DNA of 56,118 nt. Origin: an uncultured Gammaproteobacteria bacterium. GTDB lineage: Bacteria > Pseudomonadota > Gammaproteobacteria > Enterobacterales > UBA3532. The position numbers and the translations under genes are program-made. Below the pieces are notes generated by a model. The model was not told the DNA's origin. It did not search any database and was given only the letters and a program-made list of their open reading frames with translations. Below are positions 652 through 43,143 of this stretch, in pieces; positions within the stretch are counted from its first letter, which is position 1, and the number at the start of each line of letters is the position of its first letter. The stretch lies in contig CAXFCR010000003.1 of the NCBI GenBank assembly GCA_964001325.1, positions 1 through 56,118 of the forward strand. The letters are read 5' to 3'.

Positions 652-726
652 GTGCTAACAGGATATAGCTTAATCCGACGGTTACTAGTCACATTTGTGA
701 TTATTGCCGCGATTCCCGCTTTCGCA
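652..726 (+). other. Sec/SPI signal peptide of the giant protein
   Basis: RR n-region, hydrophobic LLVTFVIIAAI, and an A-F-A cleavage motif ending at 726. Confidence 0.75.
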
Positions 727-3700
727 ACTCAACCAGATATAGATATTCGAGTCCGCTCTTCGTTAAGCTCCTCGGCAAAAGAAATATTCTATACTCTTAC
801 AATAAGCGATTGTTCTCAAATAAAGACGGCGTTACTCAAAAGTGGTAATAATGTCATCAACTCGCTTGTAGCTGCTGACTTTGTGCACGGTTCTACAGGA
901 GCCAGTTGCTACCATGATTTCGAGCTTGAAAGTGGTGACAAGTTAACACCGACCGTAGACCTTGATTTTTTTAACGCGATACCTCCACTAACTTATTCAG
1001 AAACGTTTAAAGTTGAGTACGAAAAGCCATCACTATCAATAGATTCTGTTGCCCTTATTGCCGTTGATAGTGGTCAAGAGCTGGTTGTAACATTCAGTGC
1101 TGATGACGATATTGACGGTGATGTTTCCTATCTATCTGCATCGGTAACCGGCGTTAGGGCATCTATCTTGAGAAAGTTTGGCGGTGTTCTCGATGAAGCA
1201 AAGCAGCGCTCTTTTGCCAGTAGCAAGGGAGCACAAACTCTATATCCTACGATAGATGATCAAACCCAATATACTCTTTCTATCCCAGTTACTGAGTCTC
1301 TGAGTGGGGAAGAGATCGCTCATGATGGCTTAGTTTTAATAGATGCATCGGTAGTCGACGCATCAGGTAATGCAACTTCTAGCTCAAAAATCGCCTTTAC
1401 TGGTGGGGATGTTCACGAAAATGCGCTAAGTCTCATAGCATTTCCTAAGGCTATTTCATTCACAAACATGCTACAAACCGCCACGGTTATTCCGAGTGTT
1501 GAGTTTCAATTTCGCGGTTTAACGCCATTACCTGGAGCGGGCAGTGGGGTAAGTTATCAGTCCAGTCACCCAGATTACATAAGTGTTCAACCAAATGGGG
1601 TAGTTGTTCCTCTTAAAGAGCTAAAAGATGATCTGGGAGTCCCTATTCAAGCGACTATAAGCGTTGCATACGAAAATCTCGAACCCGTGCATATCCCAGT
1701 CACTACGGATTTGAGTAAAAAGCTGACAGGATTAGAGTTTGTTCTAGATGATGAGGGCTCCGCTGAGTTTGTCCTACCAAGCTTGAATTCCTGGTATGGA
1801 ATCCCTGATGTAATGGCCCTTTTTGACGATGGTACAACCGCAGAAATTAGTAAGCAGTTTCCGTTGCAGTATTCGTTAAATGCAGGATATGAAAATATAT
1901 TTGATTTAAACGAATTTCTAAAGCTTAGAGCTATTGCCGCTATTCCAGTAGAACATGGGGCTACCCTAAGTGTCGCGCTTAAAAATAAGCCAGAAATAAA
2001 TACCGTTATACCAATAGCATCAAAAGATGCTATGCCTACCGTGGAGCTGGTTGCCGATAAGCAAGTAGAAGTTGGATCTAATATCGATGTGATCGCTAAG
2101 GCTAAGGATGATGTTGGTATTGAGCGAGTTGAGTTTTATGTAAACGATGCGCTTTCAGGTACGACAGTTACTGCCCCTTATAAATTATCGTTAACGACGA
2201 CCGACTTAATGATAAATAGCACCCTGACTGTATTCGTCAAAGTTTATGATACTGAAGGAAAGCTCGTTGAGTCCGCTCCTGTCAGTATTAATATTGTAAG
2301 TAAACAGGCCGACGAAATACCTGTATTAATACTTGATGAGCCCAGGGAGCTTCAACGGTACGTTGAGGGTGGAGTCATTCGCTATCAATTTAGCTACAAA
2401 CTGGGAAGTCTAAATACGCCAGAGACACTTGAACTAGGCTCTGGAATCAATTCTGTTGATTACTACCTTGATGGCAAAAACGTTGGTGTAGCAGCATATC
2501 CTTACTTCGAGGAGCGTGAGGAGTTTGGAGATGTTGTACTGTACGAAGTTTGGCGCTTAGATAGTCGAGTTCCGGAAATAGCTACTGAAGAGACATCGTT
2601 TGCGTTTTATGCCGTGTTACACAAAGGTAAAGCTGAGAAACAAACGGCATCTACAGTCATTCGAGTAATAGAAAATACACCCGCTCAAATAAATTTCATT
2701 TCTCCAGTTCCGGGTCAATTATTGACTGAAGGGCAATCAATCAGCATTGATGTTGAAATTACCGATGATAATTTGGCATCGGGCTTGGAGCTTGATTTCT
2801 TAGTTGATGGTGAGGAATATGATGATTTCACTTATACCAAGCGAGTTGAGCCTGGAACTTCACTGGTTGATAACGCATTAGACCGAGAGTCAATATCACA
2901 CTCTTTTACCTACGCCGTGCCAGAAGCAAAAGTTGGTACCTCTGTAAAGTTTGAGGTGGTGGTCATTGATGGGAATGGCGCTGTTAGCCAAGCTCCACCA
3001 CTATTGCTGCAGGTTAAAGAAGACTCATCTCCACAAGTCGCTATTTCTAAGCCTATTAACGGGGCTGAATTTGTCTCTGGTTTACCCATTGAAATTGTTG
3101 CCGATGCAGTGGACGACTTGAAAGTATCAAGGGTTGATTTTTTCGTTAACGATAGCCTTGTTGGATCAGATGGCTTTCCGCCTTTTGGCGTAGTTTATCC
3201 TACTGACAAGGTCAGTGAACCGATACGCCTTAACCTGAGGGCGGTAGCTCAGGACAGCACTGGAAAAACTGCCCAAAGCGCAACCGTGGAAGTGACTCTG
3301 GGCCAAGACGAAGAGAAGCCGGTAGTAAATATCGTTGCCCCAGCACTTGATTCCATAGAGAGTGGAGAATTTGTCGCCACGGTAACCGAAAATATTGCAA
3401 CAATTGTCAAAGTCGCAGGGTATGACAATGTTGGTGTTTCAAGGCTTCAACTACGCGGTGTACAGAAGTCGGGCCTAGTATACAATTTAACCGGTAATCT
3501 TGACGATGTAATTGACGGGGATGATTTTAGCCCACAGCCAATTCCAGAAACATTGCGTAGTTTCTCGGCAATAAAACTGCTCAATATCCCTGCTTATGTG
3601 AAAAACGATGAAAACGAGCCGAACTATTATGATATCGAAGCCACTGCTTGGGATGAATCCGGTAACGCTTCCACTCAGGCTATTTCAATCGCCGTTGTTA

Positions 3701-6700
3701 ATGATCAGCTGCCACAAGCAGAGATTTCCACCAATAAGTCCAGGTACCAAATACGGGACGAGATTGTTGCCAATGTATTCGCTAGTGACGACTTGCAGGT
3801 TGACGAAGTAAAAGTAAAGTTTTACTTGGGGGATGGGGATGATAAGCAGTTACTTAAAGAGTTTATCGCTAATAGTAGTGATGGCGATATAGTCATACCT
3901 CAGGGTAAGCGAGTACCTGTCTCTATCCCACTGGCACTAGGAGCCTTCGACTTACCAAATATAGAAAGCAACATTACCCTTGTCTCAACCGTTACCGATA
4001 ATATTGGGCAACAGTCTGAGCCGCAACAGCTTCAGGTCACCGTATTACCTGATCAGGCTTCACCCTTGTTATCGATAACATCGCCAGTGCCAGACTCTTT
4101 AGTCTATGCCGGAAAATCACGAGGGTTCCATTGGCATGCAGAGGATGACAACGGGCTCAAGCAGATTAAAGTTTTTGTAAATGATGAACTTCATAGTGAC
4201 CTGAGTTCTGAAATTGATGCTGGCGCTAAGCGCGTCGCAAGTGGCGTATTCAATCTGACCATCCCAGAAAATAATAGCGTGTTGAAGGTCACAACCTATG
4301 CTAAGGATCTGTATGGCAATGAGCGGCAGGTGGATTGGCTTTATCGTATTATAAAGTCGGACGGACCTGTCATAAAAATACGCCAGCCAGCTCTTAATGC
4401 TAGGTATATTGAAGGAGAGCTGGTATCAGTAACGGCGAATGTTGAAGACTCAATAGGCTTGGCAAACGTCGGCAACCAAGGTAAATGGGTGTATGTCATC
4501 ATCCTTCAGGGGGATGATGAAGTGGAACGCTCTTTAGCACAGCCAACGTCCATTGGCTATTATTCTGGCGCGGTAAGAATTCCTACTCTGGATAGCGCTA
4601 AGCCTTATGAGATTTACGTGGAGGCTAGGAACAAGCTTAACGAAGTGAGTCGCAAGCGGGTCGAAATTGATATTCAGAACGATATAAACGCCCCGCAAGT
4701 TCAGCTCAAAACCCCAAGTGATGATTTGTCATTGTTGCCGCTTCAATCGTTTAAAATTCAGGTTTCAGCTGACGATGATATCTATGTTGATAAATATGAA
4801 CCTGTAATCGTTACCCCCAACCAAGAAGAATTAGTACTAGAATTTTCTTCTTGGCTAGCTGAGGGAGAGATGGAGGAGATTCGTATTCCAAATGCGAATG
4901 GGTTTGGAACGGTCGTGGCTTCGCAGCATTATTATTCGAATGCTGAGGGTAAAGTAAAAATACCATTTGAACTTGGGCAGTTTGCCGGCTCTAACCTTGA
5001 GTTTTTTATCCGAGTAAAAGACAAGGGCGTTAACATTGGTGAAAGTGAGCGAGTAAATATTCACATACTCAAGGATGAAACAAAACCAGTAATTAAAATT
5101 ATTCAACCCAGTGAGGATGTATTAGAGCGCACTCGTCGAACGGCGAATATATCTTTGACTGATAATCTTCGTCTTAAAAGCTACTTGGTCTCAGCTAAAA
5201 CAATTGATGAAGCGCTATGCGATAGCGTCGAGAATGAAGAAGAATTATTCGAATCTGTGGTTCGAGTGAGTATTGAGCTGGATTTAGAATGCCTTTTAGA
5301 TGCTCAGAATACAGGACAATTTATTCTTGATATTGAAGTCAAGGATAGTAGCTCAAATGTTTCCGTCCTTAAGCAGGTAATCGATGTTGTTACAGATGAA
5401 CCCCCAACTGTCGAGTTGGTCGCTACTGAACCAGAAGATACTTTAGTACAAGGGCAAGCCGTAAGTTTTGGAATTAAAGTAATTGACGATACCGGAGTTC
5501 TTTATCCTGGAACTCCTCCATTTGATAATATGGGAGTCAGGGCCTTCGCTGCACTTACCAATCTTCCTGTATCAAAGGTAACTCTATGGCCTGGTTGGAA
5601 TGAACAGTGGAATACCAAAGTTGTTCCGAATATTAAGGTTGCAATAGATGAGCAGGTTGAAAGCTTTGAACTGTTACTCGGAACGCATTCATATTACAAG
5701 CTGGATAATAGCTCTAGTCCGACACTTGAGCACTCACCTATCGAGCACCGTATTGAAAATAATAGGAACGAGCTTAAACGAAACTTTGCTTATCTTGATG
5801 AAGTTCTTTCACTACAGACAGCTGTCGAGGTCAATGAGTATAAGATCGTTCGCTATCAAGATATCAGTTGTGAAGAAGTTGTTGCTGAAGAGATACTTCG
5901 AGCCGATGAGTTAACGATTAGTAATGTATTGAATAGTAATGTAGCCGCTGCTGATATATTCCCTATTGCAACTGCAGACCTGCCAGTTAAGCGAATTCGA
6001 ATATTAAATAACGCCGTTGCCCCCTTGAAACAGTATAAAGGAGATACGGGGCCTAGGAATGCCGTTGACCAGTTGCAGGTACAGCTGGAGATCCGTGGCG
6101 CTCAAGGCGATTACTTTATTTCCAGCTCATTGGTTTTAGATTACAAAAGTGGCAGATCGGCTGAAGTAGATCACGTTAAATATTTCAACTTGGCCTCCAT
6201 GGTCACCAGTGCTGTGTCCAAAGCGTCGATTATTGCTGCAGGGGTTGATCGCTTCTCTTCTGAGCGCGCTAGCCAGGGAAAAGGTTTAACGGCCACCATT
6301 TCTAGTATGCCTTATTTAAGGGATCTTGAAGAACCTTCGATTATTATAACGACTCCATCCGAGCAAGTTAGCGTTAGACCTAAGCAGGTTGTTAATCTGG
6401 GGTTTGAAGCAAGTGACAATAGCGGCTCGATTGAGACTATCCGTCTGTACCAATACGATAAGCTTATAGAGGAATTCAGCGGGCACATAAACCAAACGGA
6501 ATATAATCTGGATATTACGGTACCTCAAGATATCGGGTTCTCAGAATTCGATCTAACAGTAGAGGTCGTCGATCCGTCGGGTAATAGCTATCGTTCGATG
6601 GTATCTTTGCCTGTTGTGCCCAATGAACCTCCTCAATTAGAAATGGTTTCTTTTGCAACAAGAGATTCAGAAGGTAAGTTAAGAGACATCATTACTGATC

Positions 6701-39700: not shown

Positions 39701-42700
39701 GCCAAGATAGCGAAAGCATTGGTGGTGGGGGACGAATCAGTATTCATGCTGCTAGTTGGGATATTCATTTCGAGTCCAATGCCCATGCTTATTCTGGTCG
39801 CGTGTTTGATCAGACCTCAGCACTGCAACCTGGAGCAGGCACTGTTTATTTCTTAAATACCGCGACTGGTGAAGATAAGTTGATTTTGGATAATGGAGGC
39901 CAGCCCGCATTTGAAGGATCCACTCCATACCCCTTCCTAGATAGCCCGGGAAATGGAGCCCCATATCCTGATGCTTTTGAAGGACAGCAGCGCTGGCACA
40001 TACCGCAAACCTATTGCTGTATAGAAAGAAATATTATCCCGATTGGTATCCTGGTCGATGTTAGCTCCGCTGAAAGCTTGAGTCCGTTATACACCTTGCT
40101 GGGTGCACAAAATAATGCTTGGGTTATTGATGCCCCCTTAACTGAGCCGCCAAATACCGAAGGGAGAGTCATCGGTGTATACGATACCCAGTCTCCACCT
40201 TCGGCGATAGTTAATGGACGTATTACAGGTGGAGCATCTCTTGGTTTTGGAGGGACTCGACTTATTTATCCAAACCTAGCTGCGACTAACCAATCACTGA
40301 GTATTAATGCAACAGAGGTACAGGTTACTGGCGATATTAGTGTCACGCAAAGTGGAGAGCTGGAACTGCAGGCAGACCAAGTCTTCGTTGATGGGGATAT
40401 AGTCGTGACAGAGGATGCATCATTGACGCTATCAACTGATAGCGTGATTGCTCTGGGTAGTATAAATATCTCCAATAACTCAAAGCTAACGCCTTCCTCA
40501 GATCGAACATTGAAGTTGGAAGTGGGGCACGATTTTTATCTCGACGAATCATCTATGGTTGATCTTGTTGGTAAGGGAGCTAATTACACCAGCCATTATA
40601 GTGAGACAGATTATGGGTGTAATGGTGGCACGAATCATTTAGGTTATAGAGCTTGTGTCGTTTCAAATGCATTCTGGCCAGCCTATGTCGGAGGAGCGGG
40701 GAATAGCGAGGGCGCCAATTCTGGAGGGTGGTTAGAGTTAATTGCAGTTAATGCTGTAATAAATGGATATATCGATGCTTCTGGTATTGGAAGCCCTCAG
40801 GGGGATGGTATTCCTGGCGCGGGAGGAACCATTTTGATCAACGCTCAAGCTCTTACGGGCTCTGGAAAGATAAAAGCGAATGCTGGTCCAACAACTGATG
40901 CAATGGCCGCCGGTGGTGGCCGAATAGCAGTAAAAGCAGATGATCGGAGCAATGATACAATTGATTATCAAGCTTATCCTACGCTAAATGGCACCCCTGC
41001 TGGGGCCGGGACGGTTTATCGAGTTGACCGAGAATTGGGGAGTGTTGGCACTCTGTATGTTCATTCGCCGGAGGCTACCCTGGCTAACTCAACCCACGTC
41101 AATCTGGGAGAATTAGGAAAGCCCTATTTCTATGGCCGTTTGGATTCAATAGAGCAACCCTCACCAGGCATTTGGCGACTCCAATTTAATTGGTTTAGCT
41201 TTAATAACTATGATTTCCAACCCTTGTTTGTTGATGTTAATTCAGCTAGCGATACGCCAGTGATTTATAAAGTCGCCAATATTCATGAAGATGAACGCTG
41301 GTTAGAAATTGAAACGACGGATGATCTCTCTGGGCTGGTATTCGATACGTGGGTTGAATCGGTATATGTCTTGGATGCTATCCAAGTATCAGGATTCGCT
41401 TCAGTGAGTTTATCGCACCCTACTGCCTTGCTCGATACGGCATCGTCGTATATTGACCCAGATGCTAGCTTGTTTGTTGATGGACGCGAGGTATTGCAAA
41501 TCAACAGCAACGGCCTATGCCTTGAGCAAAGCTGTGTAACGACGAGTGCCAGTGCGAGCGCAGTGGAAGAGACTAAGGAAAGCCATGAAGCAGCTGGTTT
41601 AGTTGCTGACGAAAGCACCACCTGGAAAGGGGATACCTATACATTTGAGCAAGCAGAGTTCATACCAGGGAATGTGATCCTGCAAGATAGTCAAGTCTCT
41701 TCACCTGAAATCATCGAGATCGAAGGGGCGCTTACCCTGGTTGGTGGCGTTTCACAAATTAAGGCCAAGCAGCTCATAGTGCACGGTGATGTTATTTTAA
41801 ATAACGCTAGTCTCCTTAACTTGGACTTGGTGGCAGGCATGCATGTTAAGGGTAGTAATGGACTACGTATCATTGACAACTCGATACTATCGGTGCCACA
41901 AGCGCGAATTCTGCCGCTTAAACGCCTAAGTCCGCTGTATATCGAAGTAGACAACACCATTGATATTAGCAACGACTCGATGATTCATGTTGATAGCAAG
42001 GGCTATCCGGGCGGTTATGCTGGACCTGAATTTACCAAACATCACGGAACGAACATTGGTTGTCACGTTGGCGTGGCCGATTTCATGTTAAAAGAATGTG
42101 TTTATGATGACTATCGCAAGCCGGTGTTTGCTGGAAGTGGTGGTGAACGTGTTGCTGGTGGTGGAACGATTAATATTAAAGCGAATGCCCTGCTTCATCA
42201 CGGACGCATATCCGCTAATGGCGCTATGGCGGAGCAAAATGACTATCCCGGCGCGGGTGGAGCGATATACTTGGATATTGGCACCTATCAAGGTACAGGA
42301 AGTATACTGGCAAATGCCGGGCGCTCTGGCGGATCGGTTGGTAGTTCTGGAGGGGCTGTGTCTTTAGTGGTCGACCAATTGATTGATACGCCATTTATTG
42401 AGGCGATAGCCAGTGAAGGTGGTAGTTTTGCGGGTACGGGAACCGTTTGGATCCGTGAAAGTAATAGCGATGGCAAGTTGATTGCTGATGCTGCAAATCC
42501 TGCTGCAACAGCGAGCACCTTGCTCCGACATGTGGGGCAGCACCAAGTATCACGGGTGTATCAAGATCAGAAGCATCCCAACCGGTGGTATGTGGAAGTG
42601 AATGGTGTGGCTTGGCAGGCAAGCAATGAGAGTAGTCGCCTTGGGGTCGCTGGTTTGTTGGTAGATTTTGACCTGCTGGATGATGATAGCCCGTTATATA

Positions 42701-43143
42701 CCATTTCGAGCAATTACGATAATACCTTAATCTTCGACTTTGATTCGGCAGTTGAGCCCGAAAATCCGGCTGATTTCGAAAAGCAAGCTCATTTCGAAAA
42801 ACAAGTAACCGCAGGTGACTCTTTGGTTGGCGTGCATAAGTTACAATCCTTAGCCATTTATGGCAAAGGCTCGGTATCTTTTGGAGCCGATCGGGTTGAA
42901 TTAAGCAGCGATAGTCGTTGGTATGTCGAAAAAGAGGCCAGTGTTATTGTAGAAAATAAGCAGGTATTCGGTATTTCTGGTGGTCAGCTGTGTTTTGAGA
43001 GCTTATGTGATTCCACTTCATCATCAGAAGAGGAAACGCAAACACTAGATAGTCAGGACACTGCCGTGGAAGCTTCAGCAGAGCTTGCAGCTACAAACAC
43101 AGTGACTCATAACCAAATAAAAACGCAAATAGTAACGGATTAG
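652..43143 (+). CDS. Giant (~14,160 aa) Sec-exported modular Ig-like / IPT-TIG / LVIVD beta-propeller / DxDxDG / Gly-rich repeat protein (putative surface scaffold or adhesin)
   Basis: Uninterrupted ORF 529..43143 in the track. The real start is more likely GTG 652 (GGA at 642-644) or ATG 640, giving the signal peptide (V)LTGYSLIRRLLVTFVIIAAIPAFA|TQP. Recognised motifs: Ig repeats (AKDDVGIERVEFYVND), LVIVD-type (VFVANGHGGVQVINVS), IPT/TIG (ITPHWGPVSGGTSVVVTGQGF), Big_5-like (VETVPAANEVAVNPDIAIELYFS), TSP3-like (DNDGDGLSNALE), LamG-like, FG-GAP-like (YFGNSVAITHSGSDIVIGG) and Gly-rich (GGGGRISIHA). Confidence 0.93.
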   Translation: MLTGYSLIRRLLVTFVIIAAIPAFATQPDIDIRVRSSLSSSAKEIFYTLTISDCSQIKTALLKSGNNVINSLVAADFVHGSTGASCYHDFELESGDKLTPTVDLDFFNAIPPLTYSETFKVEYEKPSLSIDSVALIAVDSGQELVVTFSADDDIDGDVSYLSASVTGVRASILRKFGGVLDEAKQRSFASSKGAQTLYPTIDDQTQYTLSIPVTESLSGEEIAHDGLVLIDASVVDASGNATSSSKIAFTGGDVHENALSLIAFPKAISFTNMLQTATVIPSVEFQFRGLTPLPGAGSGVSYQSSHPDYISVQPNGVVVPLKELKDDLGVPIQATISVAYENLEPVHIPVTTDLSKKLTGLEFVLDDEGSAEFVLPSLNSWYGIPDVMALFDDGTTAEISKQFPLQYSLNAGYENIFDLNEFLKLRAIAAIPVEHGATLSVALKNKPEINTVIPIASKDAMPTVELVADKQVEVGSNIDVIAKAKDDVGIERVEFYVNDALSGTTVTAPYKLSLTTTDLMINSTLTVFVKVYDTEGKLVESAPVSINIVSKQADEIPVLILDEPRELQRYVEGGVIRYQFSYKLGSLNTPETLELGSGINSVDYYLDGKNVGVAAYPYFEEREEFGDVVLYEVWRLDSRVPEIATEETSFAFYAVLHKGKAEKQTASTVIRVIENTPAQINFISPVPGQLLTEGQSISIDVEITDDNLASGLELDFLVDGEEYDDFTYTKRVEPGTSLVDNALDRESISHSFTYAVPEAKVGTSVKFEVVVIDGNGAVSQAPPLLLQVKEDSSPQVAISKPINGAEFVSGLPIEIVADAVDDLKVSRVDFFVNDSLVGSDGFPPFGVVYPTDKVSEPIRLNLRAVAQDSTGKTAQSATVEVTLGQDEEKPVVNIVAPALDSIESGEFVATVTENIATIVKVAGYDNVGVSRLQLRGVQKSGLVYNLTGNLDDVIDGDDFSPQPIPETLRSFSAIKLLNIPAYVKNDENEPNYYDIEATAWDESGNASTQAISIAVVNDQLPQAEISTNKSRYQIRDEIVANVFASDDLQVDEVKVKFYLGDGDDKQLLKEFIANSSDGDIVIPQGKRVPVSIPLALGAFDLPNIESNITLVSTVTDNIGQQSEPQQLQVTVLPDQASPLLSITSPVPDSLVYAGKSRGFHWHAEDDNGLKQIKVFVNDELHSDLSSEIDAGAKRVASGVFNLTIPENNSVLKVTTYAKDLYGNERQVDWLYRIIKSDGPVIKIRQPALNARYIEGELVSVTANVEDSIGLANVGNQGKWVYVIILQGDDEVERSLAQPTSIGYYSGAVRIPTLDSAKPYEIYVEARNKLNEVSRKRVEIDIQNDINAPQVQLKTPSDDLSLLPLQSFKIQVSADDDIYVDKYEPVIVTPNQEELVLEFSSWLAEGEMEEIRIPNANGFGTVVASQHYYSNAEGKVKIPFELGQFAGSNLEFFIRVKDKGVNIGESERVNIHILKDETKPVIKIIQPSEDVLERTRRTANISLTDNLRLKSYLVSAKTIDEALCDSVENEEELFESVVRVSIELDLECLLDAQNTGQFILDIEVKDSSSNVSVLKQVIDVVTDEPPTVELVATEPEDTLVQGQAVSFGIKVIDDTGVLYPGTPPFDNMGVRAFAALTNLPVSKVTLWPGWNEQWNTKVVPNIKVAIDEQVESFELLLGTHSYYKLDNSSSPTLEHSPIEHRIENNRNELKRNFAYLDEVLSLQTAVEVNEYKIVRYQDISCEEVVAEEILRADELTISNVLNSNVAAADIFPIATADLPVKRIRILNNAVAPLKQYKGDTGPRNAVDQLQVQLEIRGAQGDYFISSSLVLDYKSGRSAEVDHVKYFNLASMVTSAVSKASIIAAGVDRFSSERASQGKGLTATISSMPYLRDLEEPSIIITTPSEQVSVRPKQVVNLGFEASDNSGSIETIRLYQYDKLIEEFSGHINQTEYNLDITVPQDIGFSEFDLTVEVVDPSGNSYRSMVSLPVVPNEPPQLEMVSFATRDSEGKLRDIITDPARISYGEFWVRSSEKISLDIQQDDDTGLESLHLYKIEQDGSRILIHEDVYPYGCGLAPLTSNLTSELDFQFTETRDTLYQLELKDINGVITTRDFLVHPLENMAPQIRITSPIGKNGAENPQHIAEGKFNLLFEAIVTDDDNSPPVVEVYAEGAKLYASVISSEALIVKALSEQQQKKLNEIYDVIERQYGSVFANQYASPNSKNLHLVTLSLNLPTTLLIGKSEPKLGATATDASGAVGSDEITLVVVPDEIEPESVFIDPVVYGPVEGTDFTLTFSALDNVKVDSIEVYEQYAIRRGSGNYEFSGYREQPIRSISNIPSKDRVPITTNSIEAPIYKHIVSVDKIKDIVAKFDSLVLTGNEVYEYWIKIRSQDAAGKVDEIEKSFLVRVDEAPVIDVLQPANASQLVEGSHVPVLVNAFDDVGIDHVRFTSKINGEEIESLVLQAPPYGFSLSVPSLVDNNDRLTVEVEAIDLYGAESGDLDNHQVTETLHFQIVPDQPPAISIAKPVNGDEVFEGELLLVQVNATDDIGVDSVSLHIDGLISGAELLTDSIFPFEFVVQVPFGQANKDLSLSATVTEKRNSEPRTVSTLVPTVVNVKKDTSPPLVNIKAPKESGVEIQEHRSLPYHIEATDNVKVSSINVSLLADKDQNGSFDDSDMVVNQLLLRPPYVGAIEVGNILEYVDTPSLTSLPLMFRVKAIDGVGNETIVERMIDLVKNPPPTVEVISVIDRKGRNLIKGFDFKGEPIQGVDFELVEGVEYFFIINATDHYGVDSAKAYLNDTGLQPSEEHLLGEDVSVPFRFMYKVPYGKVGERLHVFGQATDIDGNVSAISPSMLSFTIKEDQPPQAKIIRPTSDQSVVIEGQMIEVFVEANDDLGLDGIDKVVFYVNDIPYKTVYQDYTHQSGNVAQENIYHASLAPPLGVDGVVIHAVAHDVAGHTTETQKVVVGQIADTVVPELSILQPPNGEILTASQSIQVVASVTDIGIEEERHVFYQFVREYRDEVGEWQTIYEKEKAELLRDDVVTEGSSKPISQPDKNYYVYHTVFGGSDEDNDGQEDILNRESYAQERVRLTVRVETKGHIVEAHSLHEVGQPVTENRFLLGAKDNAGWVSADERALARSVYYNAITQYRDQSLSGPMLAAWSTASPFAFESGLKLVDLSEEYSAAPYKEMTGIGNIDLGNDLFDIDPEPDVDTIGKDLGHFLFEESLVRNAEVFRGTITAMVADQTLVYAGKSGVFETPKDNHPYIYSMLETVNKDNDSPVDLNEWIDTNQAGELLLFNNHNAEDDFGLAYRLDGRVDLPYRDVYGLAKSGELVFVANGHGGVQVINVSSIKAPYHVGYIKPNGFTRDVAIYNGYAFIAASHEGVVIADIRDPSMPIVGKIDTFGIANRLTRQGDLLYVTNMSGDGFISQLDILDVSYPLTPKFKRSVELIPNRQDFVSDGVFDVEIVGNRAYASVLYSDQEDKPAQSVVEIINLDTIDDPFIDSTIPSVVHRQASQDDIGVHDIEYARGAIRMAAGHEGIAKLDLNRLDVLEHYPQTAQTQVVTDQAVNLTFSISLNNSYSAEDVAQHINIYKDAIGQGNDGIILGQKVDSTNYQVNFVTRENNGSVETSLRQMVITWQNDWQLEPGHRYFVEVTKGLEPLSGGYAMLSDYVFYFDTVLATGVQLPDITSIAPKMGGIGGGTLIAVTGCYFGDNPKLFLAGQQLQIKEQKIHNTDNTALCQNGDFPVSLRANTVPNYAGPAAVVVKTELGLEDEVVGGFTYVDNLAISFVDPPVVRVGQTGANDRVEVVGVGFHPDMTISAYPTGQPEFIQSFGMQGDGITLYSAESFTWKVPDFSEVMGESYRGFVDIVVEDSDGRYVLEQGLFYGKLEVNQRIETMDKLRDDGLIDPTVLPARYIRDLAVDESLGIVYVLGGASMGTQSTGLKDIYSKADLERTLPGWISLVKYDPSDLSVAAPMHGLGYYDMPQDLQPVAMALSEKQLYVSVWGYQLNYIDTPYEDKRWIIVYDRELTLDLPEEPSSEGKERGIQYALPLDFQSAPTHMVVQDDLLIASSIDDGVAILSLADPVKPTAVKKITKVVSNGSSLDLKPLQIFVHDSLLYVSHAGGMASFDLTKASVPQIRDLSDKGMGLNLANGLTFVQNNGTAPRLQVKNWQDNGSLLTKGSYDPRGFALRSRLEALAGLSTVIGGGEVVISGTHQRPLRHEYLTLYDISNPELINILDMVELDNEVASDKRGSQNRFSIRNVISKDGVAISNSIIQNKAGGKSKHALNFVDILVNDIVETVPAANEVAVNPDIAIELYFSKALDIAGDDIAKYIQLQKLNGESDPESVDIGIQITGERSNRVVITPATVLESQSNYQVSLVGIAESRRTRGLMDYQFVFSTASSSNIKPHITRVEPRNISTLGGEIIVELLEEVIDPRFYIGDQLASIHSVEGNQYHITAPPSVEGLAALTAVNSEGAVDRLLGAVHYVAPLALADLFPRIGSIEGGTNVVIRGSGFQPGTRVWFGAAEVRPEYIKVLDTETLEVISPIGSLGVVDVKVQVGTGSVSVLEDAFEYQQPIQSTIKSSKTIIYDMVLDSTGSYLVAAAGGKGVQVYNIDPSTYTARPGDPLNLDDLRKELDEDGDEQDDRLLTTISLPGGYSALGIDTYFERNVDWVIATGAKIDTETGKASDAKLFIIGFDAYDITQSQMIASLALDAEYAKGLVADNNLVTVAMAESGIGLVDILHPRKMYLAKARSLPQHKKSLDIQRLAGFEAATYAVVAGDYNFSIPRLQNEDDPTSGGFYIYQNATTGFSLKGSLNIPASSVAIHNQYAYLAAGDLGVVVVDISDIEDPVEVNRIAGDGHVYDIHSSGSVLYLAMGEKGILPVDVSDPMAPVKLPMINAYEQENEENKVVSVLASPYASFGAGFVSGATYLQVTPDPFLKIHRVEPTNRILGPDVLGEHLIWVRFNKEIDVVKDNDSLFSVYREDGQPIATDVELNNNDALITLQPGHGLLSGQAIYLVVSSGIQVVKQVNTDLTIDMYQLKTTQRFDFTYKDARTNEISIDHVIPRRTLVGEGLRTTITARGIPSDPAQVMVRVGGELVNIVDISVTSEAFPTSILTVDMPAIQTSGFYDVSIDVTQHGVTQGAVVYGAWHVDEVIRFDSITPHWGPVSGGTSVVVTGQGFEPGTSVGQTQSIKVGDTPVRFVKVLSSTKMRITTPEGAPGKHKVIAEDRYGNQSILPEEDGFGYGLRQIATQGSRAVHPRNLWIDQKEGVAYSNGGYVLDLWKNNRAQIGAAYFTDVPAAGVFDIQNPENSSLVGAASILTGTDPTGSDLRLYSEMLLLAGRAQNVLYPEKVLSPEELDRLSLLSEMKVAVAYGADSIQIYPDHEWTYNESLQQYQRHELLWVAAGYGGVVKLNRDDAQGLQVLAQEGSDNLVADIEKDGNLVYWFNGAGTGSEGARQPCESASGNYAKNKPLQALAFTHPTDAISLPIKVSTKSSYRIERKQQRLYVYGQSTGYDFKPISVCMLHDVGVNEIGEVSDDFANLEVINLAQPDERSVYEFESNVVDVEPYGEYDIVALMNGTLVIINRRTQEQSRFVIDSTIQTPKAYYFNIQRYANNLFLSSRGGGVIGIDFADISQPKIFTAGTRSPIYDVGIYRDRMLAAAAEGGVSVFELPGALVTEFSYDQQSIPENTPLHIAFNEVVTLESLMQEGALELQNITTGQDITDWQLEIVGDESGISDKFALSFPRTAGHDYLVRIIDARNQRGGSLWQTAQTVITAAPEGTQDIAISYLENTLWHDGDEGELIVHGQGFSQNMYVEVGSASVAFEWIAEGEIRIAYSEIEKLHLPAGAYSLTLSNTVYTDRLAAAFILAERWSNDIEWKLSKNSAPASGGYPVSIQANKQVILPGAKVELRDRFDSSRVLRTEVFSDGSKIDLRDDVKTLSEFSFRLPGVEEPGLFHVYLISGAHEQYIGDFSYSYEHGLGFELPNYPPMVVGDAVVEQRDLLVDQNQNPILSDVLFVGVSHTQSSVENNRFVMESGLEIYDLNIWERPIRLAQLPTSSPILGVDVLGNSVYLAGGEAGIYVVDITDLRQPSIIRELSLGGDVATDLSINNDLGILAVSFLRGDSGYVQFFDLSNGHMATPIGYPIVSFDGELQGKPYQIQWLGNSLHVLLSKENGFKHVEITDLGAGGVPTLLHSDVAVDNQTTSPNLSMVVFEGQLVLSIGEDYVILKKEDQTWNPVYWEQTGNSLMLNGGQVMTSNGAGFKISPMVDLAVSHYAPASASFIGWNDKITIQFNKLINTALFEEGYEPEEGHQLAYELLDSQGNVLAKENYTLSAINTLKGGQITIQMTDAFQAKESITFTLIGEEVRELNGHILGKDLSLNYTFVPGYRPQVHSVERVVAQDVALRHIFHADGSEQAIIYGQYFGTDPQGLQVSIGGLELKTEDIIEVADAQLTINIPRIDIATNSASLPIKVWRDELIGQLNGALVIMPPVKLQLVEPDFGPPQGGNWVDIYGAGFNHGLNVSFGTSPAADLRILSSSHARLRAPAGDFGPVDVVISSRYFPDEQSTLNDGYFYASREAGSVELSTEYGESPVSQLHLHGQLVYLATGGQYQLKGSSGATLRQYTSADAQLVLLDISDPVNPEVIDIPTPDGRDTRPYVLNQNLKEFGFTDLQYHDEQLGAVGGNRFYLFDTTLATDPLLIFEAELDRGGDCSASYDGEIGSQAHSLVLDRSVAYISGNFGLKVYLTGSRPRLLKSICASELGGQPSQLQRVGNLLWMLIPSLHQIVAVDLMSGDYQIANRIHLNDAAQAPLPVSDFHIVGEQVFVGTAQRASIALFAVRPDDQSVFINEQPLHAFKAGADVNAKQLQLRGQTLYVAAGHGDMQQWDVSHWLAGNFSEKIALENYYMVSGSVETFALGAETLYVGTAYVKDGDQILEPPVESAPYGNLVGGLNTIVTEELAILGHSPAVNGLLSTDAAIEVQFNKILDSRQIESDGDTLVSVSLNSSPVSGFLSMVANNDGSKLIFRPLSPLQAGREYWIEISDSLAGLHGETLPNTYRFRFVSTDDHPVTVNTIEPLFVSWEGGELITINGSGFNEETAVFIGGVEAVVESYTDNQLLVQSPNISLVDGENKLLGIEIVQGDLSLQVPASLTYVAAPSIEEVGEYNYGSGQLHSQTSTLEYSSNSFIGIRGQGLSPSTIVMVNGKPAQNVEFKSENLIVFTLPDNVLGELDIALANRTDLSDLVSDVSLSVSLPAMMHLNGKEFEHIERSGALLALATSRKIQIYSTLDSQLPLLQSTIFIDEEGLSPDQAISAIGLSETALAVVISGGEKIRFYELENPIVPELVHEIQAKNVGIQQITLADKQFVARSEQYIHVGANFGDLWKDIPVAGIIDMHSVDEWLIFLTHDTFQLRHWDSLSQPFEYAHDIDSPEALVVSPQRVMVRGETNQLFHLYGNLASGPSLDYLADIELVNGSGSVMAIAGDLLVVGHDDGIYIYDLPSTTATEPLAPIAEVNAQVDEPRYFALSGTMLEWYDNQQFANAQIPLNNIYRLNTTSIMADTQLVRFLTTGSPDGWSNVSIDGYDSEQTQQLRLSSSTDFEGDGLVYRLLATAYSQGGTVYSYQLFTQPEQTIEGVDIKLDLPWALATEVLFGVQPPILDSLSTSNWVKGQMTPLTVYGQNLDKIESLSIGDLTVFADNADSSPAWDINWLVNDTGTELSLHVLPEQAGSFDIVADSVDGSVSLQGAVLVSEPLTIDNVSTSLASQNNQVSILGGTPLYLSGTGFDGSYTIHWRPLNSTMPFDGSNQLTYQWIDGTLVADSLAISTAGQEYEVWIKKDATNEVVQSPVNVVSIDDEAPLVEEYQPLSSATPLIIDFSEDIQLDGFLVQRQNRDYDTPQLVDDSDNFEMVVSGKRIRLFLKDGGVLLPNSHYQIKIMGIRDLQGNAVTKYQKVLLDGEFSVELATKDLLKPIDIELKQLKLGDWTDASDMLELVSGYQYYVMPHAVDNMTEEELLEYELYVSWDSGTSYSLLGAPRFVAAGWEGVPIQLRGEPRVDIKVVVYDAKRNSAEQVFTYDILPASLSIEHFEPAQGQESFSDTFIRYGIGGNTDLINQIQIGVLGQWHTVDLLPPNNVITTAYAELPFKNPRLADLCSENEIHELEVSDCDEITVQISVDYGADQKLVSTNSYDLLPDTSAPTVVILEPTQRESVVIGEPLFIRAKAYDPETLFSFTASVNGELLPKEAEGIFKYTPVEPQGVVTVAVEATDSYGNQSITDLELIKVLDKESLVDIDILSPHSGEHVFAGQPLEIIVALKNLDEVTLTAILQNDPSHPLNPQPQTLTADSSGTARATLNIPSVSENRTLQIVVSHGELRSEVALTIDANSDIDELPLVNVLPEANILAGSRVYLSGQQPAGMPDFSEDSRLEVKQTALTGVVVDQMTLPYLGDSSVKVMATNGVVEIDSVLRDISGHSRADAISSLTIEPFIADEAAQYITPALLSQEQVVELFPIPVALSDSGVGLIIRGPDADRIHVPGTIGDLVNVENGLVKEAAYTGAGLWALIFENGTTHRYFWPLHNGALAQEPLVTPIYHEWESMSGRIAYQVRGNWIGAMVYQDHAWFPIAGISAGQTISDHVVVGDELFVLAANSLVRYGLDESGRAIQQRGTGYSLDISATTIQATPELIVVTNSNVVSSYRFNEMADLESVSQLAFSSAYQQLVITGELLWVQHNDTWRVFRDSELIGIFDDLNENIHFAHANLFSIPASGQHVEKLKLQAADGDGSALTPSWSEHAFDIEAVFEPSPVLGGETLVVEQNGEMVPVQPIAIPGKTGVRILRQDLNDGSLQLNRRTNHSMESTEYSLTAEALAEWSIKPNVAQSQNAHIPLLFAAEKGTASRLEVNGEIAHTYKNTAWSLLKLDTEEPEYSVTLIAEPMVEDILIPLVSNEGDGGQILVIHPVNNQSISEGEVVALRYEGSGDIRWVEIEVYDFNQNLIEVVHSQDISGELNLQLPSVENTQSYVFKVYAYVGDGHHKVTASDVSVTVYDKLALPDITISSLPHTTAVGSSLNASLVVDEGYWGKIEVFDAQRQLVAIGHPDLSWVTPDTSGMYVVATIVDSSGNEKSEEYFINVQGAWTVTSHSNGQTYDRVIPAINGDIFASGRELKLDTTSIAMFAYDIQAMAYYKNYLLVATADSQLHWLDINAHYALVASSVLPNVATDLAVENEKTLYIIDANGQLYTASLQSMLLSTPIEQLFGAEQMATAHEITYVITNKGLVLYRNGTEVKRYVVEGKAMSAATSGVYMLDVQGRIHFFNDAGNKVAVSNWALSAEQMLHFKGFLVLLSAKSEQIHLVDVRQPGQFHALGSFPVDVSLAPASLINGKITQSGHVIEIAPPSLSGTVYQTSTPLGVVSDAVSADGQFIVASGPYGAERIYREELGGWKSEVYSGAFSQSVTDVAYWDGWQYHHADQAKQVYRLNADNDKQVIFSGNAYRNVIVSGSVIVACSERVVYLANTIDLEPVWSEAPNLNNEEITNCVLVDDTVFVATRATSAEFNLWTLNTTEPSPQPSVITSVNNIEGLVSDGSYLYWSSGDDLHRFSVEDNTTSSVTIDSGVVRSLAYSDGRLLFASGETPVSIHIMNPNDWGIKAPAVHQLEQGVVTALAVWKNQLLIGVGSDGVTILDIEQSDISPAWDKPFFNAVHALGEEVPLQLAHLNDVGLVDFYQDGLLVSRIANPGYNGSTHILPGTVNGSQLAYVAKARLLSGSVVELPARHILIDGKNYPTNQSLSVELEQNIGILPEPTQVHANIGSEHPIKAVRWLTSPSIDGSFVELSASYQAPYSLEINWPQERSGEFIKAIVADIYGNIVESEPLAIVREGDDTPPTVGDFVLTGSIKNNNPIVDQPYQISVDIDDPESGISSAWLSYNGNVVDSIYSAGSLSFAVTSPGEGESHEYVVMATNGVGQTESTSITLVIDTDIPPVILSTPITPSSVVEGTHFDITVIAYDDHLVTDITVHWLGQAHQQLINEARPSAVFTLKHQAFERVPPEGAVEPIFIDVTDSSGTTVTVERVVNLTRNQAPTPDNMVVDVPNSAFYKEQIGIRLKDFDAIDDGPASETIMRIIALEAGGERLIKEFNSPVDSELVALANMPGSDEGVSVYQFVIEVEDRFEQVARSSLFEIDLSLIPNAVVFDNTSNSSANPAEVRVAKYRDVELMVRVTDELSMPIVGREVQWVVIEPTGEESSLGTSSTDNSGVAKQSFSRDRDLGEYKVIAQLSKFSAIRSEPHIITVVPGDVARIYVDRIEALPPLGSTQITMSFFDPNNNPTAEMRTLELEFNHDDFVLAGEAITDESPSSSNITYSIKPTTSTITYVINAPTESGLYNFEFIDSRYDDLYVYYDGDYRTNDKIPLEVMTGPPADWALTLDNIEHFEFGNDSVLEVTEPFTYDVTLVDEYGNHISEIGPQGAKESADFSTTLSVSGSAVFVDTQSNSITLDLTQGQASVTLVDEVAETVTLSLQATTPEIADLTLPVEQEITISTLPVAIIEQVLVPGVNDEPMTYRGTYEYDVSLVDGATETGAQFKNRYSNSVSGESWLEGNTLVFKPDSPLEVNRNCYYYYQMDTRTIDILDVNNNPVLKRLEPEVCPPAIRVKTTPHNTISSGYAHKFKFDHNISGVIYNGQITINGQTQPFDWVSHSVTLDDLGLVEGDTVQISFHAEDNEGNPYLLANTLELIWIEPTSDNDGDGLSNALELAFGYNPLDVDSDKDTSGNRLVDAEGDYDGDGLTNLEEVQLGYAPDSIDTDRDGLSDLYERDFGLDGLNQDSDGDGVLDGLDIDSFEDQKGVYVSYISELDPLLYYPMDSAHTEKSHPTNTPSSLSRMYVFDASGHGLHLLSNDNEVYSSSLTTQLEGIRDVDINKNVELSGSNDGLSVAIWFNSIVFNKYNYSRWLFDLVGDARLVSVALNVTSGELSIASDHFTNMNYGSGLNDGTAHHLVINIDIITGKYHIYIDGAYAGAIEAVDEITPIITQVRIGGSGLSSDDYYETLGHFLVTERQLSEEEVIKQYQLGKFGKTVDPSLDNDGDGLSNGLELELGYNENSTDSDSNGVLDGDEDFDGDGVSNIDELANNTDLLQVDTDKDGVNDALDLAPTDPLVGAELQWNSTDDSVFGLDSAYRTYEEYSRVDADISDNTNVITLGIARAYQDSSYKNRGIVSIFEVFNGVRNQSQILELPELAKEQYFGKITEVSGDGSTIVASDSANNTNAVSIFNRTNGSWSRQQVIEFQYSIKSISISDNAEVLAVSSYKSAGAEIYKKNLQSGLYTLLQDLKIENFGVFDGSIVLSGSGNVLAVSSPKTSQENVNTRGEIYLYRFNEVSQVYEQSATIASPAEQSYVSLGYCLDLNYVGDILAICAPDEDVHQLDKFGAVYIYAQRQPSERIGKRWQKVQRIVLPKEELITGFARDLALSGNGKALVIGGASASKAYIFVEEKGLWALTQKIERWQVTDSGSYFGNSVAITHSGSDIVIGGNDFASHHTLSSGELSSLHTPYGRYGDYANLALSYPALGLYEFNETSGALIRDLSGNANHGQYDTVSLASEPSILNDRNKLARLNESSEISISLSKTPLSATSDWNLGAWLKPDALTDQRLLLSMTSELSDQGLVSYISKSADQAALVVAQRNGSELDTLLSVDTDWLEDSWGYVSLDYHQGQLSLYFNGEKVSSADWQSPFQSLQTLQYHQSETNLTPYTGAVHWLSLNASSIDALDLKALHLLGRYGEIYSEGQDFDSDGLNDDVELALGLSPYHPDSDADGITDPLDDIDLDGLSTQQELANGTDPVLLDTDNDGVPDGLDNAPADPDDNSFDWSTVVGINVVEPPEVMVTWEETYTLDLLIVSEFNGLTFEIDHQYISDIQPVIVSSDETVAAQLLGREVSALSEGQAILTITFPDQTSVSSDVLVNVMAYYDVGDVVWEGYHRYKGLVVAGDAVISSGKVIIEGELQVQGSLQLGAGELRASNITIGNELIKDSAGISTIGVTGSIVLDGSSGTGDVHFKRGTITVPEANRSTKTYYPIDIQTVGNIYLSYPATIDLDDSGYPYGVAGPDFSNSSRYIGCHASSPGNGCAYGSYVYPSYPGSGGEDYYGGGFISLDAENIQLLGVVTARAESDSDEGGAGGGMYFNARDSIEIRDLVDVSGGSGGRIAVHAKHFVNDFGMHLVGVNSPGYGGPATVYLYEKESDSQQLIVSTPERPSWNSYTTPINSVGRHTIDSVVAHGNMPNAWVVTSLSATWPESDDPREKGVRGLQVRLDADNPDAPLYRIIDNTATTLTIEVPSGDVLTAGNSLVGVHHFSNLVVENAIVDFGEDIVYVEGDYAFADQDAVTLDLSNIRGDVYIQGGLSITNVNDFELLAASNITFRDDISVENSNILMRADEYVVGGQNINLTNSHITVPENDGSYEYFELNLLANGSISIDSSSSVDVSGKGTKYAIKVNGESINKPCHGGTNQSNIDCSYDDLHHVLYSGNYLGGGYTSLYADTIILDGIIDASAEPVGSGGGVHIEASSLTGSGSIDASAGNTTDSSSRPAGGGRVSIHAQSWAPHFETAVSVNGSHGSLIGGAGTLYFRELDANGAFVSDKLIVDNGGEPAPEATTFLPSIGIRAISSVVAHPELANHFVVYLDLENENNYAVRESSLLPLAFGISELIEVDLDLDNPGPLYQVVDNTEDTITIRSNSSDLPAWGQRLQGVQYQDKLVNVDIRAGANLTWLHDQIATKGQLSLSDGQEHELYLDGAGEVHVSNGTSVTIRVEGSFQAGQITVTDNSTLTLAVPGIIEVDGSVIVSGGATITVLDYQGDSPYPLRIHSGGDITIDESSRFDLVGKGYKANRSPTRDGSQSGVYGCHGGISSYATYSCSYGSYYRSTQPGSGGGHTNYSYYDGGYPTRTPFERGGGFVELIANNVQVAGVIDASAMPLSMGRDSGNTGAGGGVHIETQQLSGSGTILANGGDSDGQDSESIGGGGRISIHAASWDIHFESNAHAYSGRVFDQTSALQPGAGTVYFLNTATGEDKLILDNGGQPAFEGSTPYPFLDSPGNGAPYPDAFEGQQRWHIPQTYCCIERNIIPIGILVDVSSAESLSPLYTLLGAQNNAWVIDAPLTEPPNTEGRVIGVYDTQSPPSAIVNGRITGGASLGFGGTRLIYPNLAATNQSLSINATEVQVTGDISVTQSGELELQADQVFVDGDIVVTEDASLTLSTDSVIALGSINISNNSKLTPSSDRTLKLEVGHDFYLDESSMVDLVGKGANYTSHYSETDYGCNGGTNHLGYRACVVSNAFWPAYVGGAGNSEGANSGGWLELIAVNAVINGYIDASGIGSPQGDGIPGAGGTILINAQALTGSGKIKANAGPTTDAMAAGGGRIAVKADDRSNDTIDYQAYPTLNGTPAGAGTVYRVDRELGSVGTLYVHSPEATLANSTHVNLGELGKPYFYGRLDSIEQPSPGIWRLQFNWFSFNNYDFQPLFVDVNSASDTPVIYKVANIHEDERWLEIETTDDLSGLVFDTWVESVYVLDAIQVSGFASVSLSHPTALLDTASSYIDPDASLFVDGREVLQINSNGLCLEQSCVTTSASASAVEETKESHEAAGLVADESTTWKGDTYTFEQAEFIPGNVILQDSQVSSPEIIEIEGALTLVGGVSQIKAKQLIVHGDVILNNASLLNLDLVAGMHVKGSNGLRIIDNSILSVPQARILPLKRLSPLYIEVDNTIDISNDSMIHVDSKGYPGGYAGPEFTKHHGTNIGCHVGVADFMLKECVYDDYRKPVFAGSGGERVAGGGTINIKANALLHHGRISANGAMAEQNDYPGAGGAIYLDIGTYQGTGSILANAGRSGGSVGSSGGAVSLVVDQLIDTPFIEAIASEGGSFAGTGTVWIRESNSDGKLIADAANPAATASTLLRHVGQHQVSRVYQDQKHPNRWYVEVNGVAWQASNESSRLGVAGLLVDFDLLDDDSPLYTISSNYDNTLIFDFDSAVEPENPADFEKQAHFEKQVTAGDSLVGVHKLQSLAIYGKGSVSFGADRVELSSDSRWYVEKEASVIVENKQVFGISGGQLCFESLCDSTSSSEEETQTLDSQDTAVEASAELAATNTVTHNQIKTQIVTD
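2030..9980 (+). repeat. N-terminal tandem array of degenerate bacterial Ig-like domains (roughly 20 or more)
   Basis: Recurring D/N-x-x-P-x-V/I-x-I-x-x-P ... A-x-D-D/N-x-G/K-V-x-x-V ... A-x-D-x-x-G-N pattern about every 100-150 aa (e.g. 2035, ~3030, ~7880, ~8200, ~8510, ~9235). Similarity is at protein level only. Confidence 0.8.
10050..24260 (+). repeat. About seven super-repeats of ~700 aa: beta-propeller (LVIVD-type) + Big_5-like Ig + IPT/TIG + IPT/TIG
   Basis: Big_5-like starts at about 11296, 13546, 15484, 17704, 19498, 21574 and a degenerate one at ~23340. IPT pairs start at about 11713/12004, 13885/14131, 15847/16141, 18034/18319, 19858/20164, 21901/22165 and 23662/23953. Propeller-like segments precede each unit. 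Confidence 0.7.
32911..36265 (+). repeat. Three clusters of TSP3-like DxDxDG calcium-binding repeats separated by LamG/ConA-like and FG-GAP-like domains
   Basis: Clusters start at 32911 (DNDGDGLSNALELAFGYNP), 33925 (DNDGDGLSNGLELELGYNE) and 36037 (DFDSDGLNDDVELALGLSP). LamG-like segments are at ~33250-33900 and ~35370-36010. An FG-GAP-like propeller spans ~34190-35300. Confidence 0.75.
36570..43010 (+). repeat. Five C-terminal ~400-480-aa Cys-pair/glycine-rich repeats
   Basis: Each repeat has C-H/N-x(7-10)-C (first Cys codons at 37021, 38176, 39373, 40618, 42061), then GGG-x-I/V-x-L-x-A, GAGG/GSGG, mostly L-x-GSG-x-I-x-A, GGGR-I/V and AGTV-Y/W motifs, followed by a beta-rich insert (most copies have ...PLY-x-I/V...). 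Confidence 0.8.

Follow-up and report, generated by a model that had tools for sequence, protein, structure and literature searches.

How does a bacterium with two membranes bring a protein of 14,167 amino acids to its surface when that protein begins with a Sec-type signal and carries no recognisable signal for crossing the outer membrane? The question is raised by a contig of 56,118 nucleotides from an uncultured gammaproteobacterium of the Enterobacterales, UBA3532 (GenBank assembly GCA_964001325.1, contig CAXFCR010000003.1, positions 1 to 56,118 of the forward strand), which was analysed at its full length and is referred to here as the window. On its + strand, on which the operon genes and the promoter match given below also lie, it holds a giant gene at 640..43143, with 14,167 codons and a stop from the first ATG, and this is a genuine single gene for a multi-domain, beta-rich protein of about 1.5 MDa. 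We consider it reasonably probable that the product is a Sec-exported surface or extracellular fibre that is served by operon-encoded periplasmic foldases and leaves the cell through the general type II secretion system (T2SS); for the T2SS exit step taken alone the chances seem to us slightly worse than even. The class of protein is familiar, and what is new is its conserved Sec-dependent architecture, a dedicated peptidyl-prolyl isomerase (PPIase) operon, two families of partner proteins and an unnamed beta-helix module. The giant protein probably serves as an adhesin for particles, polymers or the surfaces of hosts.

A preliminary description of this DNA, made from the letters alone, had proposed an intact gene of 42.5 kb with an old, selected architecture, and both proposals have held. 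The open frame extends from a TTG at 529 to 43143 in a window without a single N, and the product has one stop, which is terminal; an alternative in-frame start, the GTG at 652, would give 14,163 instead of 14,167 amino acids. With the N-terminal 500 amino acids as the query, intact orthologous frames of 11,927-15,056 amino acids were found in seven of a sample of 400 other genomes from this order, and two of the carriers, G015 and G177, are closed single-contig genomes. Collinearity over about 10,900 residues was established on two aligned orthologues: residues 19-10,916 of the window protein run collinear with residues 13-10,740 of the G015 protein (28.5% identity over 11,263 alignment columns), as do residues 19-1,617 and 1,895-10,886 with the G022 protein (about 30% identity), and when all three are aligned, 10,788 columns are free of gaps and 18% of these are identical throughout. 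Taken with the codon-position bias of strain differences described below, the orthologues and their collinearity speak for an intact gene that is old and subject to selection.

Species-representative genomes, when scanned, added 23 further loci. Cultured carriers are Colwellia psychrerythraea GAB14E, Colwellia maritima, Pseudoteredinibacter isoporae (two strains), Cellvibrio sp. NN19 and Alkalilimnicola ehrlichii AK92, and carriers among metagenome-assembled genomes (MAGs) bear the labels Thiodiazotropha, Sedimenticola, Ectothiorhodospiraceae, Arenicella, Cellvibrionaceae, Marinimicrobium, Myxococcota/Myxococcales and Desulfobacterales. The family is conserved yet patchily distributed; it occurs in Gammaproteobacteria, and a few loci come from MAGs whose label is Myxococcota or Desulfobacterales. 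No description of it was found in full-text literature searches, supplements lying outside their reach; a survey of huge proteins reports frequent signal peptides among those of fewer than 20,000 amino acids and, in its accessible part, does not describe the present family (PMC11573180). In genome G208 only a 224-residue remnant of the N-terminal domain was found (L040, G208:C65:46400-47062), with three internal stops, a case in which the giant gene has been lost.

Frames of this length invite the suspicion of an artefact, be it repeat mis-assembly, a MAG contig of chimeric origin or a pseudogene in decay. The window is the entire contig C3 of a fragmented assembly (3.54 Mb in 436 contigs, 94.9% complete), its GC content jumps at 52,045, though this is downstream of the giant gene, and the sequencing run that best matches the stretch may be its source itself, all of which lend the suspicion some substance. 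Against it stand the independent assemblies with intact frames, two of them closed, and the collinearity of both aligned orthologues. Nor are there near-identical DNA repeats that could have collapsed: no long or near-identical repeats were found in the DNA of the giant gene, which contains four short direct-repeat families of 30-58 nt, with copies 67-76% identical to the reference copy, and a single tandem array (18 nt x 2.1, at 42769-42805), and in a comparison of the protein with itself no segment pair is more than 59% identical. The preliminary description had rightly called the repeats highly diverged at the DNA level. Contigs of three runs were compared with 20 kb of the window (25001-45000). 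The likely source run covers this part at an even depth of 10.5-12.2, contigs of a second run match with 100% identity, and a marine metagenome run contributes 30 pieces, each of them 99% identical or more. Over these positions the run contigs show no alternative joints. None of the runs listed as matching the stretch is recorded as an RNA run. The third run (X3, a 2025 aquatic metagenome) covers parts of the stretch and represents a related strain of 90-99% identity, for which 40 differences are listed and 152 are further ones; among those listed, 25 of 40 fall in codon position 3, 25 of 40 are synonymous, none creates a stop, and the one indel is an in-frame insertion of 18 nt at window position 26753. 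Given the intact orthologous frames, the collinearity, the even depth without alternative joints and the strain differences biased to position 3 and free of stops, a mis-assembly or pseudogene origin of the long frame is very unlikely, and we give an artefact of any of these kinds next to no credence.

Evidence on export begins with the N-terminus. It reads MDLIVLTGYSLIRRLLVTFVIIAAIPAFA, followed after the predicted cut by TQPDIDIR, with two Arg, a hydrophobic core of 12-13 residues and a closing A-F-A, and would form a cleavable Sec signal peptide for signal peptidase I of residues 1-29 (640..726). Its 19-mer is the most hydrophobic in the whole protein (Kyte-Doolittle 2.07, runner-up 1.68); a hydrophobicity scan found no second membrane-type segment in the protein, and the signal peptide has no lipobox Cys. 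For comparison, 28 related loci were used, 23 from the species-representative scan and five from the sample of the order. A hydrophobic stretch stands directly before the conserved mature start in 27 of them (best 12-mer Kyte-Doolittle 1.64-3.26), the 28th being cut by a contig end. The position of the stretch is conserved across the loci and its sequence is not; most of the stretches close with a small-residue site (SKA, VNA, AQA or VRA), after which comes a mature start of the form (D)-[VI]-D-[IL]-[RQ]. The classical signal peptide of the preliminary description is borne out by these predictions, and a cleaved Sec signal on the giant protein is strongly supported by the comparison of N-termini.

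A second clue to the compartment lies in the cysteines. They are rare in the protein (36, or 0.25%), and 34 form 17 disjoint pairs at most 63 residues apart, whereas the number of pairs under random placement averaged 4.55 and never exceeded 11 in 20,000 permutations, so that 17 was not reached once; the many close pairs noticed at first sight are real. Cys58 and Cys90 are invariant in an alignment of seven N-terminal sequences. In the alignment of three full proteins 78 columns contain Cys, two of them common to all three, and cysteines have been gained and lost as pairs between orthologues. Cysteines that stand in close pairs and come and go together fit disulfides, and so an oxidising compartment.

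Characterised megadalton gram-negative adhesins bypass the periplasm by type I secretion, and a type I secretion system (T1SS) is used by LapA, MpIBP and most characterised giant gram-negative adhesins. One report describes SiiE, too, as a giant adhesin secreted by a T1SS (PMC6272769). One might ask whether the window protein is a further such substrate, with a non-canonical C-terminal signal and an N-terminus that is not a cleaved Sec signal. It shares with the giant repeats-in-toxin (RTX) adhesins LapA, SiiE and MpIBP a megadalton chain of Ig-like domains, Ca-binding motifs and a region towards the C-terminus that binds the ligand; C-terminal T1SS signals are poorly conserved as a class, the tail of the giant protein is disordered, and the genome has four TolC-like open reading frames (ORFs). 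However, those adhesins have no Sec signal, end in RTX repeats and a T1SS signal, and have genes for the ABC transporter and membrane fusion protein (MFP) adjacent, while the window protein has the signal-peptide-like N-terminus with its conserved position and small-residue site, and the RTX pattern GG.G.D has no match in its 14,167 amino acids, in which Pfam finds no HemolysinCabind either. No ABC or MFP genes belong to the conserved operon and no T1SS genes are linked to the locus, and in the 95%-complete genome no HlyD-type T1SS adaptor exceeds its cut-off (best type_I_hlyD 33.7 bits against 208.65). The C-termini of orthologues, moreover, differ entirely, the last 3,000 or so residues being the variable part of the protein. 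Type I secretion is for these reasons a very improbable route, and the polarity of export would be opposite to that of the T1SS giant adhesins, with the N-terminus first.

The search for other exit and anchor signals covered the whole giant protein, in tiles of 5,000 and 1,000 amino acids, with Pfam (E ≤ 0.01 and E ≤ 0.001) and NCBIfam (E ≤ 0.01). No secretion, sorting or anchor family was found in these scans, which returned only Big_7, TIG, Big_5, LVIVD and Laminin_G_3 besides sub-threshold matches. In particular, no tile matched an autotransporter barrel or Haemagg_act at E ≤ 0.001, the pattern LP.TG has no match in the 14,167 amino acids, and in the last 4,167 NCBIfam recognises no type IX secretion (T9SS), PEP-CTERM or GlyGly-CTERM sorting domain, the sole result there being a sub-threshold match of the CglD type; the tail has no hydrophobic stretch. 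The preliminary description had listed RTX nonapeptides, an autotransporter terminal aromatic residue, a two-partner secretion (TPS) domain, a T9SS domain, LPXTG and PEP-CTERM or GlyGly-CTERM as missing, and the pattern and family scans agree with it; a barrel or T1SS feature, which would have spoken against it, was not detected in the tiled scans either. The genome is that of a diderm, with BamA and PilQ beside the TolC-like ORFs. Neither a TpsB (ShlB) over its cut-off (best 20 bits against 22.7) nor IAT_beta was found anywhere in it.

What the genome does contain is a canonical T2SS. It has a single GspD (591.9 bits, cut-off 351.35), which is encoded on contig C36 without linkage to the giant gene and adjoins a GspE fragment of 433 amino acids that is cut by the locus end and scores 626.4 bits, just under the cut-off of 630.25. 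GspD also exceeds its cut-off in all seven other carriers and is unlinked to the giant gene in the closed genomes. The protein combines a Sec-type signal with GspD and GspE in the same genome, as a T2SS substrate would, and it has the make-up of an Ig-like multi-domain surface protein and lacks that of RTX adhesins, type V proteins and proteins with C-terminal sorting domains.

Handling in the periplasm is suggested by the gene next door. Only 4 nt separate the giant gene from that of a parvulin (PpiC-type) PPIase of 274 amino acids (43148..43972), which has a signal and a lipobox-like IPGC (Rotamase 95.6 bits, Rotamase_3 107 bits); gaps of 22 and 13 nt then lead to two further genes, ORF3 and ORF4. 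The PPIase is 30-42% identical to its counterpart beside six orthologous giants, so that the PPIase neighbour pointed out earlier is a conserved operon partner. In orthologous loci the giant gene is followed by a block in the order PPIase, second PPIase-like lipoprotein (Rotamase_2 and SurA_N, about 290 amino acids), ORF3 homologue and ORF4 homologue, and this block is present in six of the seven loci examined (G015, G022, G048, G050, G147 and G266). The giant protein itself contains 654 prolines.

Two precedents make the T2SS the most economical guess for the remaining step. Giant genes of Omnitrophota adjoin T2SS-like clusters that include a Rotamase_2 PPIase (bioRxiv 10.1101/2023.11.21.568195, West-Roberts et al. 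2023). The likeness to the window lies in the content of the locus: both have very long, multi-domain proteins with predicted signal peptides and attachment-type domains, a parvulin-family PPIase nearby and a proposed T2SS-type route. The window, in contrast, belongs to a gammaproteobacterium, its protein has 14 thousand residues against 30-85 thousand, its PPIase stands immediately downstream in an operon, and no T2SS genes are linked to it. The second precedent is InvL of Acinetobacter baumannii, a barrel-less Ig-like adhesin that requires the T2SS for its display at the surface (PMC9245377). It shares with the giant protein the architecture of a Sec-exported Ig-like/lectin adhesin without a type V barrel, but it is a lipoprotein of 492 amino acids with a lipid anchor, and the window protein, at about 29 times its length, lacks a lipobox Cys in the signal peptide.

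Several observations weigh against this explanation. T2SS genes are unlinked to the locus in every genome examined, and across the order GspD exceeds its cut-off in 72% of genomes (108 of 151); with the system so common, its presence in eight of eight carriers, which are related and hence not independent counts, is near expectation and does not discriminate. We know of no T2SS substrate that approaches the giant protein in size. No anchor was found, which leaves the retention of the protein at the surface unexplained, and a cryptic translocator or anchor may lie in its N-terminal region or in ORF4. The cleavage of the signal is itself a prediction. Genome G177 has an intact giant gene without the block of PPIase, ORF3 and ORF4 in the 13 kb examined downstream, and the second PPIase-like gene, kept in six other loci (L034, L032 and L065-L068), is absent from the window between the PPIase and ORF3 (43972-43995); a tblastn search of the 95%-complete assembly did not find it elsewhere. 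The preliminary description held that the protein transits the periplasm and must exit by the T2SS or some undescribed route: the first part fits the Sec-type signal, the paired cysteines and the PPIase, while the "must" is better replaced by a "may", as co-occurrence with the T2SS is non-discriminating.

If the T2SS is not the exit, the two remaining partners come into view. ORF3 (43995..52031) would be a secreted protein of 2,678 amino acids, with a predicted signal ending in LPAFA before an S, five Glucodextran_B domains and a CarboxypepD_reg domain; its C-terminal 600-950 or so residues are conserved in six orthologous loci, and a profile search against PDB sequences gave Bap-type Ig matches only. 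ORF4 (52045..56118) is cut by the contig end and has at least 1,358 amino acids, with a predicted signal peptide, a conserved domain of about 900 residues and then DUF6531 (RHS-type). Signal-like hydrophobic starts are found on both and on most of their homologues. We regard it as rather unlikely that ORF3, ORF4 or both form an undescribed translocator or tether, with the PPIases keeping the giant protein export-competent. The two genes are conserved beside the giant gene as often as the PPIase is (in the same six of seven loci), no secretion genes are linked to the locus, and both products appear to be Sec-exported with 600-1,100 residues of no recognised fold. The N-terminal domain of ORF4 has 94 invariant positions among seven sequences, no Pfam match, no PDB relative by profile and, like the C-terminal part of ORF3, no ESM Atlas score of 0.8 or above (0.79 or less), and in the relatives of ORF4 the conserved domain is followed by Big_1/Invasin_D3 and Laminin_G domains, the former as in inverse autotransporters, which have an N-terminal barrel. 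But neither ORF3 nor ORF4 matched any beta-barrel family, the IAT_beta family of such barrels is missing from the genome, the C-termini of ORF3 homologues are polar and have no terminal aromatic residue, the AlphaFold2 model of the N-terminal 1,130 residues of ORF4, built on a seven-sequence alignment, is uninformative and not barrel-like (pLDDT 43, pTM 0.33), and G177 keeps its giant gene intact without these partners in the stretch examined.

How is a fibre of this length built, and which end would face the environment? The mature protein begins with a conserved N-terminal region (residues 30-470, 727..2049) that is 33-43% identical across the family and includes the invariant Cys58 and Cys90; a profile search with the N-terminal 500 amino acids against PDB sequences gave no relative of solved structure. 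It opens a collinear, non-repetitive core (residues 30-10,916, 727..33387), a conserved series of unique domains of which some 20 are recognised by Pfam, most of the core being without a match. Above the Pfam cut-offs are the Ig-like families Big_7 (204.9 bits, six stretches), TIG (66 and 159.1 bits, two and five stretches) and Big_5 (43.9 and 48.9 bits), and LVIVD propeller repeats also occur here; from its length, we estimate that the whole protein has roughly a hundred domains or more. At 33388 a lineage-variable C-terminal region begins, of about 3,270 residues in the window, 2,930 in G015 and 1,130 in G022. Its first part (33388..36693) contains Asp-rich motifs of Ca-binding type, like those of thrombospondin type 3, and a lectin-like Laminin_G_3 domain (residues 11,634-11,766, Pfam).

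The second part of this region (36694..43008) consists of five diverged modules of about 400 residues, which start at 36694, 37882, 39052, 40345 and 41737 and are predicted to be right-handed beta-helices. The copies are 24-28% identical to the last one and have one Cys pair each. An AlphaFold2 model of the last 468 residues (pLDDT 78.4, pTM 0.81) shows a right-handed beta-helix followed by 44 disordered residues, and structural alignment of the last module with VIA-align matched it to HMW1 (Z 12.2), EtpA (11.3), HxuA (11.0), Awp14 (9.8) and FHA (9.5), with a root-mean-square deviation of 4.2-5.4 Å over 184-224 aligned residues and 12-17% identity, that is, at the level of the fold only. Foldseek found no match to the module in the PDB at E ≤ 0.001, a profile search against PDB sequences reached a best E of 0.31, and none of the Pfam models matches it. 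At E ≤ 0.001 the module is present in 614 representative proteins, with up to 12 and often 5-12 copies in each, and co-occurs there with PA14, TSP3_bac, Big_7 and LVIVD domains; a Cys pair and Gly-rich turns are its conserved features. The fold is that of HMW1, EtpA, HxuA, FHA and the Candida Awp adhesins, but unlike in the beta-helical adhesins of TPS and autotransporter systems, the modules are C-terminal and fivefold instead of forming an N-terminal TPS domain, and neither TpsB nor an autotransporter barrel accompanies them. Together with the Laminin_G_3 domain, these fold matches suggest an adhesin-like distal end. The polar, low-complexity C-terminus (NQIKTQIVTD) noted in the preliminary description is present, but only as a disordered acidic and polar tail of 44 residues behind the fifth module (43009..43140, AlphaFold2 pLDDT 26-32); it is not conserved, and the C-termini of eight orthologues have nothing in common.

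This architecture bears on the idea that the giant protein does not leave at all and serves as a periplasmic or outer-membrane-associated scaffold. Such a role would account for the lack of any known exit or anchor signal in the protein and for partners that are lipoprotein PPIases acting in the periplasm. Yet TIG, Big_7, LVIVD and Laminin_G domains and adhesin-like beta-helices are typical of surface and extracellular proteins, a C-terminal region that diverges fast and varies in copy number fits a tip facing the environment, and by estimate the extended chain would far exceed the width of the periplasm. Residence in the envelope appears improbable to us.

We therefore return to a fibre exported through Sec and, probably, the T2SS, and speculate on how it might be assembled. 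Made with a cleavable N-terminal Sec signal, as its N-terminus predicts, the protein would be threaded into the periplasm from the N- to the C-terminus. There the paired cysteines would be oxidised, and the prolines and successive domains could be handled by the parvulin-type lipoprotein PPIase or PPIases of the operon, acting as foldase or holdase, a role to which the conserved synteny points. The move to the surface or the medium would most likely be made through the general, unlinked T2SS, which might pass a thin folded rod domain by domain. On the pattern of conservation and the predicted folds, the N-terminal region and core may form a cell-proximal stalk, and the variable beta-helix and lectin region the distal, ligand-binding end; ORF3 and ORF4 probably act together with the giant protein at the surface.

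Why this matters can be said briefly. Sec export, disulfide pairs and operon PPIases, as predicted here, would mean that a 1.5-MDa protein is handled in the periplasm and that no known signal accounts for the way in which it then crosses, or stays at, the outer membrane. The family defines an unnamed, widespread beta-helix module of about 400 residues and two conserved partner families without a known fold. As the carriers include cultured, non-pathogenic genera from sea and soil (Colwellia, Cellvibrio, Pseudoteredinibacter and Alkalilimnicola), the question of exit is open to direct genetic testing. It is a bold and rather unlikely thought that the five-gene cassette (a Sec-dependent fibre of 12-15 thousand residues, one or two parvulin lipoprotein foldases and two large partners) is a self-contained fibre system with an undescribed diderm route, in which the partners are a new conduit or tether or a folded 1.5-MDa rod passes a secretin domain by domain. 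If true, its polarity, N-terminus first, would be the reverse of that of all characterised giant gram-negative adhesins.

Some features of the surroundings remain to be told. The GC content of the giant gene is 0.453 (genome 0.47), and precisely where ORF4 begins (52,045) the value rises from 0.45-0.46 to 0.554; at four orthologous loci the GC content of ORF4 does not exceed that of the neighbouring genes. A tblastn search of the assembly found no continuation of ORF4 elsewhere. This step and the DUF6531 tail, in place of the Big_1/Invasin_D3 and Laminin_G domains of homologues, suggest that ORF4 is a replaced or recombined gene, or that the contig end is chimeric. No linked secretion genes were found upstream, where gene context is conserved only among close relatives and not beyond. 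Positions 3-293 of the window hold the 3' end of an upstream gene (96 amino acids), cut by the contig start. Between it and the giant gene, a consensus scan that returned five sites per 1 kb against 1.2 expected has its sole + strand site, a sigma-70-like match TTGATT-17-TATGAT at 590..618, which is weak evidence of a promoter. Within the last beta-helix module, the tandem array at 42769-42805 encodes a doubled AHFEKQ. Directly after the giant gene in G177 and G048 only, there is a gene for a protein of 524 or 546 amino acids with a signal-like N-terminus (L064 11668-13239 and L066 1925-3562), and the two are 54% identical.

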